Shown here piece after piece: positions 4,885 through 51,845 of a stretch of 64,000 bases of DNA; the first letter of the stretch is position 1, and each line of letters starts with the position of its first letter. The notes under the pieces were generated by a model, which saw only the letters and a program-made list of their open reading frames with translations, was not told the DNA's origin and made no database searches. Position numbers and translations under genes: made by a program. This stretch comes from Bacteroidaceae bacterium (GTDB taxonomy: Bacteria; Bacteroidota; Bacteroidia; Bacteroidales; Bacteroidaceae). Location: NCBI GenBank assembly GCA_017465905.1, contig JAFTVE010000002.1:14865-78864 (forward strand), read 5' to 3'.

Positions 4885-5047
4885 AGTTGAAAGTTGAAAG
4901 ATGAAAGTTGAAAGTAGGCTTCGCGATGTGTTCCCTGCTGGATGACAAAACTTTTATCTTTCACTTTTCAGCGTTTCATTTTTTTAAAGTTATTTTTCTG
5001 AGTTGTAAGTAGGAAAACTTTCATCTTTCATCTTTCCACTTTTTTTA
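4885..5047. repeat. GAAAG-word hairpin element, copy 1 (between parB and the four-helix-bundle gene)
   Basis: AGTTGAAAGTTGAAAGATGAAAGTTGAAAGT ... AAAACTTTCATCTTTCATCTTTCCACT. The terminal arms are imperfect reverse complements. Roughly 90 percent identical, by eye, to copy 2. Confidence 0.9.
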
Positions 5048-5402
5048 TGTTATTATTCTGTTTGCTGGTTTTTATACTTGCAGTAAGTAGTGCTATAAGT
5101 TCTTTTAAATCACTGTACATAGAGCTGAAGTGCTGTTCATCTATAATTCCACTTTCGTGTAGAAGCTCTAACCAATAGGCAGTTTCATCTGCTTCTTTTA
5201 GGGCGATGGATAGTTTGTTGATAAAGTCAGCGCTACTTTGGGCATTGTTGCTTTCTCGTGCATTGGCACCTATGCTGGTCCCGCTACGCAGAATTTGTTT
5301 GGATATAACGCACTCATTCTTCTCTTTTTGGAGATAAGAATAGAAACGTATTATCCTTATTGCAAATTGTTTGCTTTTTTGTAACAATGGTCCGTAACTC
5401 AT
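5028..5402 (-). CDS. four-helix-bundle protein (23S rRNA intervening-sequence protein / Avd-like family)
   Basis: 124 aa. Family-typical SKQILRSGTSIGANARE...ALKEADETAYWLELL. Looks markedly AT-richer than its neighbours. The stop codon lies inside the flanking repeat. Confidence 0.85.
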   Translation of the reverse strand: MSYGPLLQKSKQFAIRIIRFYSYLQKEKNECVISKQILRSGTSIGANARESNNAQSSADFINKLSIALKEADETAYWLELLHESGIIDEQHFSSMYSDLKELIALLTASIKTSKQNNNIKKVER

Positions 5403-5411
5403 AGCTCTCTT

Positions 5412-5582
5412 AGTTGAAAGTTGAAAGATGAAAGTTGAAAGTAGGCTTTGCGATGTGTTTCCTGCCGGATGGCAATAATCTTTCTTCTTTCACTTTTCAG
5501 CGTTTCATTTTTTTAAAGTTATTTTTCTGAGTTGGAAGTAGGAAAACTTTCATCTTTCATCTTTCCACTTTCCACTTTTTTT
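5412..5582. repeat. GAAAG-word hairpin element, copy 2 (between the four-helix-bundle gene and parA; overlaps the parA 3' end)
   Basis: Direct repeat of 4885-5047, offset by 527 bp. Contains the parA stop codon and its last 8 codons. Confidence 0.9.
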
Positions 5583-11304: not shown

Positions 11305-11317
11305 GGTAGGAGGGTTT

Positions 11318-11408
11318 TAATTCTGAATTCTGAATTCTGATTTTTGAATTCTAAACATGGCTGTTTATAATGGATAATGTAGAATTCACGATTCAGAATT
11401 AGAAATCA
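11318..11408. repeat. imperfect palindrome built from GAATTC/TGAATTC words
   Basis: TTAATTCTGAATTCTGAATTCTGATTTTTGAATTCTAAACA ... TGTAGAATTCACGATTCAGAATTAGAAATCA. Fills the spacer between two co-directional genes. Confidence 0.8.
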
Positions 11409-24291: not shown

Positions 24292-24330
24292 TAATCTGCA
24301 ATTGGCAACTTGCAATTTGTAAATACAGGC

Positions 24331-24771
24331 ATGAGGTTTCCGCTGCATTATATTGGTAAGGTCTCGAAGTTTGTCGTGTCCAATGCTATGGGTACGGTAG
24401 TCGATACTTTGGTGCTGTGGGTGTGCTCGCATTTCATCTTTGCGGATTATGGCTATGTGGGTGAATATTTGGTGTCGCCGCTCATTTCTTTTGAATGTGC
24501 CGTGTTTGCCAACTACCTAAGCTCATGGCATTTCGTGTGGCGCGATCGTGCGAAACGGTATGGGAAGTCTACTTTTATGCGCAAGTATCTTATGTACAAT
24601 CTCTCCTCCTCAGCTGCGTTTCTTGCCAAGATGGCTGTCCTGCTGCTACTCGAGAGGTTGTTCGGGTGGAATGTAGTAGTGTGCAACCTTGCCGCCCTGT
24701 GCCTCTCGGGGTGTATTAACTTTGCGATGGGCGAGTGGGTGATATTCAGGAAGCTGAAAGTGGAAAGATGA
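24331..24771 (+). CDS. GtrA-family membrane protein
   Basis: Four-TM small protein, KFVVSNAMGTVVDTLVLWV, typical of GtrA. Internal ATG preferred to the TTG given in the track. Confidence 0.65.
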   Translation: MRFPLHYIGKVSKFVVSNAMGTVVDTLVLWVCSHFIFADYGYVGEYLVSPLISFECAVFANYLSSWHFVWRDRAKRYGKSTFMRKYLMYNLSSSAAFLAKMAVLLLLERLFGWNVVVCNLAALCLSGCINFAMGEWVIFRKLKVER

Positions 24772-24801
24772 TAGTATAATCAAGAAGGTTAGTAATCGAA
24801 A

Positions 24802-45770: not shown

Positions 45771-45775
45771 CTTTG

Positions 45776-45901
45776 TTATTTACAATTTTACAATTTACTA
45801 TTTACGATTTATTGTGCGATTTAGTTATTTACAATTTCAGCATCGCGAAATTCAAATTGACGAATAATTAAATTGTCAAATCAATTGTAAATTGTAATTG
45901 G
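45776..45901. repeat. about 125-bp imperfect palindrome built from TTACAAT/ATTGTAA words
   Basis: Left half has TTTACAATTTTACAATTTACTATTTACGATTT...; right half has ...AAATTGTCAAATCAATTGTAAATTGTAATTGG. Centre AATTTCagcatcgcGAAATT. Confidence 0.75.
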
Positions 45902-48652
45902 TTAAATAGTAAATTTCGCAATTGTCTCCTTAATCGCAGCAATCTTGCTCTCGGCATCGGCCTGCTTCTTGCGCTCGGCGGCTACTACGGCTTCGGGGGC
46001 ATTGCTTACAAAACGTTCGTTGGAAAGTTTCTTCATCACTGAGTTAAGGAAACCTTCGAGGTAGGTGAGCTCGGCCTGCAGCTTGGCAACTTCGGCCTCT
46101 ACATCGATGAGGCTGCCCAGAGGTACGGCATACTCGGTGGTGCCTACCATGAATGATGAGGTACCCTCGCTCTTGGCTTCTACTACATTGATAGCTTCGA
46201 GGTTGGCCATCTTCTCAATAATTGCATTGTAGGTAGCTACAGCGTGATTGCCTACCACTTCAAGGCTGAGCGCCTCCTTCTGCGCGATGTTCTTCTGCAA
46301 ACGGATGGTGCGCACGCCACTGATAATGCTCTTTACGGTCTCGATGTCGGCTATGAGCTGCTCGTCGTACTTGTCGGCAAAAATCTTTACGCTTTGTGTC
46401 ATGATGCTCTCGCCGGGCTTGCGTTCCTCGATAGCTTGCCACAACTCTTCGGTGATGAAGGGCATGAAGGGGTGGAGCAGGCGAAGCAGGGCGTCGAAGT
46501 AGTGAAGTGTGGCATCGTAGGTCTGCTTGTCGATAGCACAACCGTAGGCGGGCTTCACAATCTCAAGATACCAGCTGGAGAACTCATCCCAGAACAGGCG
46601 GTATATAGCCATCAGTGCCTCGCTCAAGCGGTACTTGCTCATCAGGTCGTCCACCTCGAGGGCTGTCTTGGTGAGCATAGCATCGAACCACTGGCAACCC
46701 AAGCGGGCAGCCTCGGGCTGAGCGATGGTGGCATCTACATTCCAACCCTTTACGAGGCGGAAGGCGTTCCAAATCTTGTTGTTGAAGTTACGGCCCTGCT
46801 CGCAGAGTGCATCATCGAAGAGGATGTCGTTGCCGGCAGGAGCGCAGAGCATCATACCCATACGCACGCCATCGGCACCATACTGGGCGATGAGGTCGAG
46901 CGGGTCGGGCGAGTTGCCGAGGCTCTTCGACATCTTGCGTCCCAGCTTGTCGCGTACGATACCGGTGAAGTATACATTCTTGAATGGCATGTCGCCCTTG
47001 TACTCGTAGCCTGCCATAATCATACGGGCTACCCAGAAGAAGATGATGTCCGGGCCAGTCACCAGGTCTGAGGTGGGGTAGTAGTAGTTGAGTTCGGCAT
47101 TGTCGGGGTTGTTGATACCGTCAAACAGTGAGATGGGCCACAGCCATGATGAGAACCATGTGTCGAGGGCATCCTCGTCCTGACGCAGCTCAGCAGCTGT
47201 AATATTCTCGTATCCCTCAATCTTGCGGGCCAACTCAACGGCTTCGTTAATGCTCTCGGCTACTACGAAGGCCTCCTCGGCACCCTCTGCGGTGGGCAGG
47301 AAGTAGGCCGGTATGCGGTGTCCCCACCAGAGCTGACGACTGATGCACCAGTCCTGAATGTTCTCCAACCAGTTGTTGTAGGTGGTCTTGTACTTGGCGG
47401 GGTAGAATTTGAGTTCGTCGTTCATTACGGGCGGCAGGGCGATGTCGGCAAAGTGCTGCATACGGAGGAACCACTGCATGCAGAGACGCGGCTCAACGGC
47501 TGTGTCGGCATTGCGCTCCGAGTAGCCCACCTTGTTGTCGTAGTCTTCCACCTTCTCGAGCAGACCAGCAGCTTCGAGGTCCTTGGCGATGAGGCGGCGC
47601 ACCTCCATGCGGTCCTTGCCTACATAGAGTCCGGCTTCCTCGCTCAGTGTGCCGTCGGGGTTGAAGATGTCGATAGTCTCCAGATTGTGCTTCTTGCCCA
47701 GCATGTAGTCATTGGTGTCGTGAGCAGGAGTCACCTTCAAGCAACCTGTACCGAACTCGATGTCTACGTAGCGGTCCTCGATGACAGGAATCTCGCGACC
47801 TACGAGCGGTACGATGACCTTCTGTCCCTTGAGCCAAGTGTTCTTGGGGTCCTTGGGGTTGATACACATGGCCGTGTCGCCCATGATGGTCTCGGGGCGA
47901 GTGGTAGCCACTACGGCGTAGTAACCTTTCTCGTCTTTGTGGATGACGTTGTCGAGTTGAAAGTTGAAAGATGAAAGTGGAGAGTGGCCGTCCGGATGGC
48001 AACTTTCATCTGTCATCTTTCCACTTTCCACTTGTCCTACCACATAATACTTCAGATAATACAGCTTGCTCTTCTCCTCCTTGTATATTACCTCTTCGTT
48101 GGAGAGGGCAGTCTGTGCCTTGGGGTCCCAGTTTACCATGCGCAGGCCGCGGTAGATAAGCCCCTTGTTGTAGAGGTCTACGAACACCTTGATGACGCTT
48201 GCGCTGCGCTTCTCGTCCATGGTGAAGGCCGTACGGTCCCAGTCGCATGAGGCACCCAGCTTACGCAATTGCTTGAGGATGATGCCGCCGTGCTCGTCGG
48301 TCCACTCCCAAGCATGCTTGAGGAACTCCTCACGGGTGAGGTCGCTCTTCTTGATGCCCTGTTCGGCGAGCTTCTTCACCACCTTGGCTTCGGTAGCGAT
48401 AGAGGCATGGTCGGTACCCGGTACCCAGCAAGCATTCTTGCCCAGCATACGTGCGCGGCGCACGAGAATGTCCTGGATGGTATTGTTTAGCATGTGTCCC
48501 ATGTGAAGCACACCCGTCACGTTGGGTGGGGGAATGACCACTGTATAGGGCTCGCGGCCGTCGGGCTCAGAGTGGAAGAGTTTGTTGTCTAACCAATATT
48601 GATACCATTTACCCTCAACATCCGTGGGGTTGTATTTGCTTGCTAATTCCAT
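45902..48652 (-). CDS. valS: valine--tRNA ligase (contains an in-frame repeat-derived insert)
   Basis: [13 protein letters not shown] (HIGH), KMSKSLGN (KMSKS), [10 protein letters not shown], and a C-terminal coiled coil. 916 aa. Confidence 0.95.
47954..48031. repeat. GAAAG-word hairpin element, short 78-bp copy inside the valS coding sequence
   Basis: First 24 nt AGTTGAAAGTTGAAAGATGAAAGT are identical to 4885-4908 and 5412-5435. The loop keeps CCGGATGGCAA. The right arm AACTTTCATCTGTCATCTTTCCACTTTCCAC is similar to about 5545-5575. Confidence 0.85.
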
Positions 48653-51431: not shown

Positions 51432-51845
51432 CTATATGGCGAAAGTTCATAAATCGGTTGGCTTTGGCAACGCGGAGAGAACAGAGCCAAATTCATTTGA
51501 ACTCTGCTCACGAGCAAGCAAGCACAACAAATTCAGTACTTCCCCGTCAGTACTCCAGTACTGAGCCGTAAGTACTCGAGTACTTGGTCATAAGTACTAT
51601 AGTACTTGCATGAAAGTACTGATAGTTACGCCTTTTTTCTGTCTTAAGATTGTCGTTTCAGTGTGAGTCGTGCTAAAGAAGTTTACAATATAGGGCTTAA
51701 TATACTGAAAAGGTTGACAATTATTCTTTCATTCCTATTGGCTATAGTATTAAAACAAACTCTTAATATCCGTCAAGAAGTTAACGTTATCGTTGCAGCG
51801 TTCCGCACTGCCAAAGCCAACCGATTTATGAACTTTTGCCAATAG
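51432..51845. mobile_element. 414-bp segment bounded by 37-38 bp inverted repeats (MITE-like, or invertible/ori-like segment; nature unknown)
   Basis: Left CTATATGGCGAAAGTTCATAAATCGGTTGGCTTTGGCA (51432-51469). The reverse complement of 51809-51845 is CTATTGGCAAAAGTTCATAAATCGGTTGGCTTTGGCA, with a 28-nt perfect core. Confidence 0.4.
51535..51620. repeat. eight AGTACT hexamers in a strict 14/8/14/8/14/8/14-bp start-to-start pattern (22-bp period)
   Basis: AGTACT starts at 51535, 51549, 51557, 51571, 51579, 51593, 51601 and 51615. The spacers (N8 and N2) are not conserved. Confidence 0.9.

Follow-up and report, generated by a model that had tools for sequence, protein, structure and literature searches.

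A tandem-heptamer hairpin repeat carried in frame within valS of a Bacteroidaceae bacterium, at a polymorphic loop of the enzyme

The gene valS, which encodes valine--tRNA ligase (ValRS), contains in one Bacteroidaceae bacterium a 78-bp near-palindromic element that is read in the frame of the gene and whose arms are built of tandem heptamers, (GAAAGNT)n. The element lies in a stretch of 64,000 nucleotides (GenBank assembly GCA_017465905.1, contig JAFTVE010000002.1, positions 14,865 to 78,864), hereafter called the window, of which an earlier reading had been made from the letters alone; that reading is referred to here as the original prediction. We confirmed that the repeat in valS is real and shares its origin with intergenic copies in the same window, and we found that the position it occupies in ValRS, called site A here, is polymorphic both within and between species. 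The model that best accounts for these findings, and that we hold to be likely, is one in which a permissive loop acts as the filter for a selfish hairpin. The coordinates of all features are collected in Table 1.

A hairpin in the frame of valS and its intergenic relatives

The inverted repeat spans 47955–48032 and consists of two 39-nt arms that are 79% complementary, with no spacer between them. Its RNA folds at a computed −30 kcal/mol (z = −4.57), and 0 of 200 shuffled sequences folded as well, so the element has the palindrome and the stable stem-loop that characterize Rickettsia palindromic elements (RPEs). On one side the heptamers of the arm read GAAAGTT or GAAAGAT and on the other they are variants of GTGGAAA; this asymmetry, GTT on the left and GTG on the right, is already seen in the intergenic copies. 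With forms of 78 bp and ~165 bp, arms of 24–39 nt and several copies, the repeat also has the size and structure of a MITE (miniature inverted-repeat transposable element; <300 bp, terminal inverted repeats, several copies). A search of Rfam under gathering and E-value thresholds returned only chance matches to microRNA hairpins.

Within the window, exact copies of the 24-mer AGTTGAAAGTTGAAAGATGAAAGT are located at 4885–4908, 5412–5435 and 47955–47978, and shuffles of the window that preserve dinucleotides gave 0 matches. The first two belong to long copies that lie on either side of a four-helix-bundle (4HB) gene between parA and parB. One of these, the copy at 5412–5582, shares further sequence with the valS element, namely the 11-mer of the loop core, CCGGATGGCAA, and the right arm, which over 33 nt is 97% identical to 5545–5577. 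The original prediction had anticipated all three similarities, placing the right-arm match at about 5545–5575 and the start of the 24 identical nucleotides one base before the true start at 47955. With 0 such matches expected by chance, the 24-mer without mismatch, the right arm (33 nt, 97%) and the 11-nt core of the loop show that the valS and parA/parB copies have a common origin. The description of the valS element as a shortened copy of the long hairpin fared less well: the shared sequence stands, and shortening is only one way to read it, since the valS element could equally be the basic hairpin unit and the long copies composites of it.

The frame in which the element is read is the only one available to it. 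Its length is a multiple of three (78 = 26 × 3) and it holds no stop in the valS frame, as had been proposed; moreover, one of the six frames of the 78-mer is open, and this is the frame used by valS. Where a strand reads (GAAAGTTGA)n, TGA interrupts each of its three frames; the opposite strand is open. In metagenome loci, the long open reading frames (ORFs) that span the 24-mer all read the antisense strand. In the sense orientation, the heptamer arms end genes by providing C-terminal codons and a stop. The peptide SSFNFQL, encoded by the valS element, recurs in a spurious upstream extension of the parB ORF, in agreement with the original prediction. Judging from the open frame, the insert would be translated as ~26 extra loop residues.

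The host protein is 916 aa long, as had been stated, and matches Thermus thermophilus ValRS (1GAX) with E = 3.5e-177. Its gene, valS, is essential. The alignment with 1GAX breaks off at G206 and picks up at E205–G208, and query residues 207–240 therefore have no Thermus counterpart; at this position the Thermus enzyme has only a four-residue turn, EGGG, which joins strand LYTLRYEV to the one that leads into TVRPET. The insert thus probably sits at the tip of a β-hairpin at the entrance of the editing (CP1) domain, where it would be exposed at the surface. It does not directly precede the conserved motif ATTRPET, as originally thought; it stops 16 residues before it.

ValRS proteins differ considerably in the length of this loop. 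We surveyed 150 ValRS representatives of 50%-identity clusters, 86 of which could be measured, and the distance from NW.P to T[TV]RPET was 41–42 aa in most of them, compared with 58 aa in the short allele of the clade and ~77 aa in the window ValRS. The tail of the distribution is made up of other lineages with arbitrary inserts and reaches +240 aa. This spread, together with the EGGG turn, therefore identifies a loop that tolerates changes of length. As for the whole protein, a representative at 78% identity has 892 aa, other representatives mostly have ~870–920 aa, and insert-free members of the clade have 896–900 aa; these lengths correct the 875–880 aa that the original prediction had given for ValRS of Bacteroidales.

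One representative from an unrelated lineage, P0240 (1254 aa), has an in-frame insert of ~240 aa at the same loop as window aa 205–240. This insert includes a Y1 transposase domain of the IS200-like kind (PF01797; 31.2 bits, cutoff 23) and has short peptide repeats on its flanks, and it appears from the sequence that a whole transposase is read through inside the essential gene.

Outside the window, the exact 24-mer was found in 107 stretches of metagenome sequence, their sources being gut, rumen, sludge, soil and sediment, which disposes of the possibility, raised with the original prediction, that it is confined to three loci by chance. Most of these copies are intergenic, so the repeat belongs to a dispersed family with intergenic copies, as RPEs do; some are short hairpins and some stand in frame in other genes. 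A GH97 glycosidase carries a heptamer copy in frame as part of an insert of ~48 aa that is missing from PDB 8WG0, and further in-frame copies lie in a CcsA-like membrane protein and in queA. The queA case (L161) was rejected as a clear insertion, the net change of length relative to the PDB QueA being only a few residues. A search of viral contigs for the 24-mer found none. Among the matches listed in a degenerate 20-mer scan of the genome collection, many phyla were represented and only the heptamer run was common to them.

Allelic variation at three loops of ValRS

A search for close relatives yielded 120 ValRS sequences that are at least 89% identical and have lengths of 896–950 aa. Variation in length among them is confined to three sites, A, B and C, and outside these sites the proteins differ from that of the window by 0.4–5%. 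Site A holds the heptamer-derived insert of the window, whereas sites B and C are empty there and filled in relatives; site B corresponds to the zinc-knuckle region of Thermus ValRS. Across the clade, site A has at least 11 alleles, and the peptides at the three sites derive from palindromes of at least five unrelated families. The GC-rich families of sites B and C (PLSSPQGG, SPNPSQGG, THPNPSLYGG, THPIPPCEGG and PTTPPEGE) are also found at site A, and site C also carries a heptamer-like peptide, SQFSILNSQLN. Members of the THP...PPCEGG family have three different junctions at site A, which points to independent insertions.

The DNA of every long site A allele forms a strong hairpin, each of another sequence family. 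The GC-rich alleles of the relatives L004 and L006 fold with z = −3.9 and z = −3.4, respectively, in contrast to the short alleles, which have no significant structure (z of about −0.9 and −1.3). At all three sites, every allele keeps the frame and contains no stop, which is therefore a sign of selection on a translated product and argues against removal of the insert from RNA or protein. Two of the GC-rich families could be followed to other places: the site A element of L006 recurs as a 91% identical copy and as a further one inside a VapE-like gene, and once more at site B of the same valS, and the L004 family is represented at folD in L005 and next to it.

To compare backbones, 2,034 nucleotide positions (678 codons) were used. 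The valS backbones of the window and of the relatives L002, L003 and L234 are 96.6–97.9% identical, the range expected within one species, and the pairs tested differ by 0–1 nonsynonymous compared with 43–51 synonymous codon changes. These four sequences carry four site A alleles: heptamer, PLSS, STLENSE and LEHIEAEEGM. The site A insert is thus a polymorphism, within as well as between species, and filled and empty versions of a site, as known for MITEs, are found both here and at an element at the 3′ end of valS described below.

The expectation that the insert would prove lineage-specific on alignment to orthologues was upheld: proteins that are 93–99.6% identical elsewhere have either no insert or a wholly different peptide, and the site has no conserved peptide, the Thermus enzyme having its EGGG turn only. 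In frame, free of stops and absent from orthologues, the element shares these features with RPEs. An assembly artefact is ruled out, because 27 distinct ValRS sequences have the heptamer allele and come from many assemblies made independently (ENA, NCBI, JGI, MGnify and Logan), on contigs of up to 452 kb.

We also observed that ValRS is unusually conserved among the relatives L001–L006, with 95–99.6% amino acid identity outside the loops and ~89% nucleotide identity; for contrast, identity is 77% in the neighboring FtsH and 83–91% in the DUF8429 protein encoded downstream. Gene order upstream of valS is not constant among these genomes.

Origin of the insert and comparison with known systems

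In this filtered-hairpin model, one copy from a dispersed family of non-coding palindromes with GAAAGNT heptamer arms would have inserted into the DNA for the tip of the β-hairpin at the CP1 entrance and become fixed inside valS. Since valS is essential, survivors would be found only in the single open frame and with a net change of length that is a multiple of three. The translated insert would then be tolerated, with an effect that is presumably neutral or slightly harmful. On a larger scale, several unrelated hairpin families, one type with heptamer arms and at least four others that are rich in GC and resemble paired repetitive extragenic palindromic (REP) sequences in their build, may repeatedly insert into genes of a Prevotella-like clade and persist only in the few loops that tolerate a change of length. 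The three tolerant loops in ValRS would therefore look like hotspots, with different alleles within and between species. The repeats could be mobilized in trans by a transposase, or could move through recombination.

Several findings weigh against this model. A 5-bp direct repeat, TTGTC, borders the element, but its coding-strand form GACAA is absent from every short allele at the site and it therefore cannot be confirmed as a target-site duplication. Relative to every short allele, the heptamer allele replaces ~10 loop codons, so the insertion is not a clean one. With the P0240 insert as query, no transposase of the Y1/RAYT type was found in the window or in 235 further loci, and a parent insertion sequence (IS) or transposase, as expected for a MITE, or any other mobilizing enzyme was likewise missing from this set. 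The heptamer allele has identical junctions in the window species and in two relatives, L144 and L235, whose valS backbones are only ~89% identical. Between these lineages, 173–190 of 678 codons carry synonymous changes, and an old, neutrally drifting insert should therefore be far more diverged than the 93–95% insert identity that is observed. Between the window and L235 or L144, identity in the flanks of the insert is not raised, as it would be in a recombination tract, and the similarity of the insert across lineages needs very short-patch exchange, site-specific insertion or a constraint on the insert. As to the family of the repeat, a complementary arm (at least 18 of 24 positions) stands within 200 nt of the 24-mer in 12 of the 71 non-redundant loci with enough flanking sequence, always downstream (maximum with shuffled flanks, 15); the remaining loci are single heptamer arrays, and so the 24-mer alone marks a broad low-complexity class, not one family. 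Finally, an AlphaFold2 model of ValRS built from 29 near-identical sequences has a mean pLDDT of 33.5, too low to place the loop.

The identical junctions in three diverged lineages would be accounted for if the hairpin were directed to its DNA site by an enzyme specific for structure or sequence, such as a Y1/RAYT-type transposase acting on single-stranded hairpins, in which case the hotspot would reflect a preference of insertion too. Such targeting is also favored by the fact that at three sites several families have landed only a few codons apart, by the architecture of the GC-rich inserts as two inverted REP-like palindromes and by the Y1 domain that P0240 carries in the same loop. However, no Y1 transposase was found in the window or in any of the 235 loci, the junction sequences have no motif in common, the short alleles are without significant secondary structure, and selection for tolerated positions in an essential protein suffices; we consider targeted insertion possible, if somewhat unlikely. 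Quite unlikely, in our estimate, is diversifying or balancing selection that keeps the three loops variable, for example through escape from a phage factor, toxin or antibody that binds ValRS, with palindromes only supplying the raw material and recombination carrying alleles from one species to another. It draws on the contrast between 0–1 nonsynonymous changes in 678 codons and at least four alleles in one species (at least 11 at site A in the clade), on the sharing of the heptamer allele by lineages ~89% identical in backbone and 93–95% in insert, and on the PLSS allele, which is also common to several lineages with identical junctions. Yet no selective agent is known, the inserts resemble unmodified selfish repeats, and the copies differ little, by changes that are mostly nonsynonymous and do not maintain the hairpin, as drift predicts. 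Arbitrary low-complexity inserts occur at the site A loop in other lineages too, and a permissive loop with a high rate of insertion is sufficient. A combination of these ideas, in which hairpin repeats are actively targeted to a few permissive loops by a Y1/RAYT-like activity or very short-patch exchange between species, with essential genes as safe havens because imprecise loss of an insert would be lethal and with the loops perhaps kept by selection, seems to us unlikely. If true, it would amount to a programmed or semi-programmed diversification of loops in a housekeeping enzyme, driven by selfish palindromes.

Two further explanations are far less probable. The loop does evolve by slippage in units of 9 nt, as seen in ENS-EVS-ENS alleles of 60 and 63 aa, and heptamer arrays of the GAAAGNT type are widespread and of low complexity, so the insert might have arisen by local slippage or template switching and have come to resemble intergenic repeats by convergence. 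We think this very improbable given the non-repetitive CCGGATGGCAA, the 33-nt arm at 97% and the exact 24-mer, which are matched 43 kb away with a chance expectation of 0, and given that the GTT/GTG asymmetry of the arms pre-exists in intergenic copies. It is hardly credible, too, that the insert is absent from the mature enzyme, having been removed from the mRNA, skipped over by the ribosome or cut out of the protein. The mRNA hairpin is stable, and hairpin-flanked cassettes with PF05635 genes are known as intervening sequences cut from 23S rRNA; but the frame is kept without a stop in every allele at three sites, the heptamer element is in its only open frame, which selection on translation predicts and removal would not need, and the insert has no features of an intein or intron and at 78 nt is too short for either.

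Among described systems, the RPEs come closest to the filtered-hairpin model. In the passages on RPEs in two later papers, which cite Ogata et al. 2000, 2002 (PMC10969869; PMC2229807), these are short hairpin repeats that occur both between genes and in frame in conserved genes, with several families per genome, and whose translation gives extra peptides that the host enzyme tolerates. The valS insert agrees with this description, its translation being predicted from the frame. The differences are that RPEs belong to obligate intracellular Alphaproteobacteria, in contrast to the free-living gut Bacteroidales studied here, and that they measure 105–150 bp in those passages compared with 78 bp for the valS element, the arms of which are tandem heptamers. 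In the present case, furthermore, the same three loops of a single essential enzyme are shared by several unrelated families, and their state varies within a species. The precedent invoked in the original prediction therefore fits in behavior, while nothing points to homology of sequence.

Bacterial MITEs found in frame, such as ERIC/IRU, the 107-bp Correia element, YPAL and the Coxiella elements QMITE1/2, are likewise small, non-autonomous inverted repeats with open frames that are fused to host ORFs internally or at the 3′ end (PMC2229807; PMC5896051). They supply C-terminal residues and stops, as the repeats in the window do for parA, the 4HB gene, a gtrA-like gene and valS. The repeats described here differ in that neither a TA nor any other target duplication could be confirmed, that no cognate IS was found and that the termini are tandem heptamers instead of a unique inverted repeat. 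Intergenic tandem heptamers have been reported in the TAACTGA repeats of Beggiatoaceae, Cyanobacteria and Bacteroidetes (PMC4679880). These are mostly intergenic, often lie just 5′ of start codons and have stops in three frames one way while the reverse strand is open, and this determines where overlap with genes is possible; in contrast to the present repeats, they use another heptamer, form direct arrays and are not described as hairpins inside genes.

The GC-rich inserts at the same ValRS loops, composed of two inverted short palindromes and a spacer, resemble REPINs. REP and REPIN elements are mobilized by RAYT (Y1, IS200-like) transposases, and REPs are extragenic by definition. The heptamer element of the window does not have the paired-REP architecture, and no RAYT was found in the window and the fetched loci. 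A last parallel is with hairpin-bounded intervening sequences of 23S rRNA, which contain PF05635 ORFs and are cut from the rRNA by RNase III. Here as well, long repeat copies flank a PF05635 gene and a hairpin-bounded insert is tolerated in an essential gene; unlike those sequences, however, the valS element is a hairpin alone, without an ORF, and in a protein gene it must be translated.

Literature searches for a precedent in Bacteroidales, for RAYT/REPIN in Bacteroidetes and for heptamers with PF05635 found no relevant description, in keeping with the statement in the original prediction that no equivalent is known for Bacteroidales. The repeat sequence was in no paper found, and a 2024 review of MITEs makes no mention of Bacteroidetes.

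In-frame, protein-coding palindromes have so far been seen as something peculiar to Rickettsia, apart from a scattering of MITEs in other bacteria. They are now found in bacteria that abound in gut and rumen, where the host gene encodes an aminoacyl-tRNA synthetase, and the finding extends to a multi-family polymorphism at three sites of this essential enzyme. The aspects that are new relative to RPEs and MITEs are the tandem-heptamer arms and the presence of several families in the same loops of one essential enzyme. With at least 11 alleles at site A, four of them in one species, the allele series is a natural series for studying the tolerance of insertions of 15–45 residues, and it bears on the spread of selfish hairpin DNA, on filtering by the reading frame and on the exchange of loops between species. 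On the practical side, the inserts inflate apparent strain diversity and produce length variants in a common phylogenetic marker, and the open antisense frames of the repeats yield spurious ORF extensions in annotation.

Other repeats and palindromes in the window

Table 1. Position and nature of the repeats, genes, variable sites and site A alleles discussed in the text (window coordinates unless given as amino acids, aa)
Feature	Position	Strand	Description
valS	45902..48652	-	ORF for valine--tRNA ligase, 916 aa; Pfam tRNA-synt_1, Anticodon_1, Val_tRNA-synt_C
valS element	47954..48031	-	near-palindromic, 78 bp; arms of tandem heptamers (GAAAGNT)n; read in frame
TTGTC, left	47949..47953		5-bp direct repeat, possible target-site duplication
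TTGTC, right	48032..48036		5-bp direct repeat
Long copy	4885..5050	+	~165 bp, between 4HB gene and parB; same repeat family as valS element
Second long copy	5412..5582	+	~171 bp, between parA and 4HB gene; shares 24-mer, CCGGATGGCAA and right arm with valS copy
4HB gene	5028..5402	-	four-helix-bundle, PF05635, 23S rRNA-intervening sequence protein, 124 aa; E = 4.5e-27
Single heptamer arm	24752..24775	+	3 mismatches to 24-mer; gives C-terminus and stop (...KLKVER) of GtrA-like gene 24310-24771
(TTTACAA)n hairpin	45772..45925		heptamer arms; between valS and downstream gene, overlaps last valS codons
(AATTCTG)n hairpin	11315..11404		heptamer arms; between two minus-strand genes
Site A	aa 205-235		between LKYYV and [VI][IVL]HKD; site of window insert
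Site B	aa 454-459, ~47276-47293		empty in window; GC-rich palindromes in frame in relatives, e.g. L006:11405-11432
Site C	~aa 805, ~46238		empty in window; palindromes in frame in relatives, e.g. L235
Site A allele			VGLENVEAEEGM; in 896-aa proteins
Site A allele			STLENSEVSENSEGM; also as 9-nt-repeat expansion
Site A allele			heptamer-derived QVESGK...SSFNFQLDN; window type
Site A allele			APLSSPQGGKTPFELSESLPLGGDQEGAP
Site A allele			KTHPFPPCEGG...REDLGGS; three different junctions
Site A allele			THPNPSLYGG...GQRGS
Site A allele			ASPNPSQGG...PLLGRGKGEA
Site A allele			APTTPPEGE...SSGGVGEA

At the 3′ end of valS, the (TTTACAA)n hairpin is present in the window and in L003, L004 and L005 and absent in L001 and L002. 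With the hairpin, the C-terminus of the enzyme reads KFTI before the stop, and without it KLK; AAATT is a possible target duplication of this element.

Gene ends are supplied by repeats elsewhere as well. The stop of parA (5550–5552) is inside the right arm of the copy at 5412–5582, and the 4HB gene takes its last codons and its stop (...KKVER) from the right arm of the copy at 4885–5050. Tandem heptamers of the types GAAAGTT, TTTACAA and AATTCTG repeatedly give the last codons and the stop, the cases being parA, the 4HB gene, the gtrA-like gene and valS, and heptamer hairpins or arrays that give gene ends are also located at 5545–5582 and 5016–5043.

The 4HB gene and one repeat together form a 527-bp unit inserted between parA and parB. 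PF05635 genes within 100 bp of GAAAGNT arrays recur at ~10 unrelated genome and metagenome loci (window 4885–5582, L045, L130, L147, L172, L174, L191, L197, L222 and L226), an arrangement that suggests a mobile cassette of a PF05635 gene with heptamer repeats as its ends.

GAAAGTT arrays often abut other heptamers or near-heptamers, such as GGCATGC, GTTTAGG, CTAAGGA, ATCAATC and TGAATAC (L145, L134, L190, L221, L230 and others), which suggests a general mechanism that makes heptamer arrays in the intergenic DNA of Bacteroidota. Further palindromic regions of the window lie at 2829–2956 and 51533–51622; one of the two consists of tandem ACGTATCC(A/G)YGGATATTT units with overlapping inverted repeats, and the other is a 90-bp palindrome rich in AGTACT.

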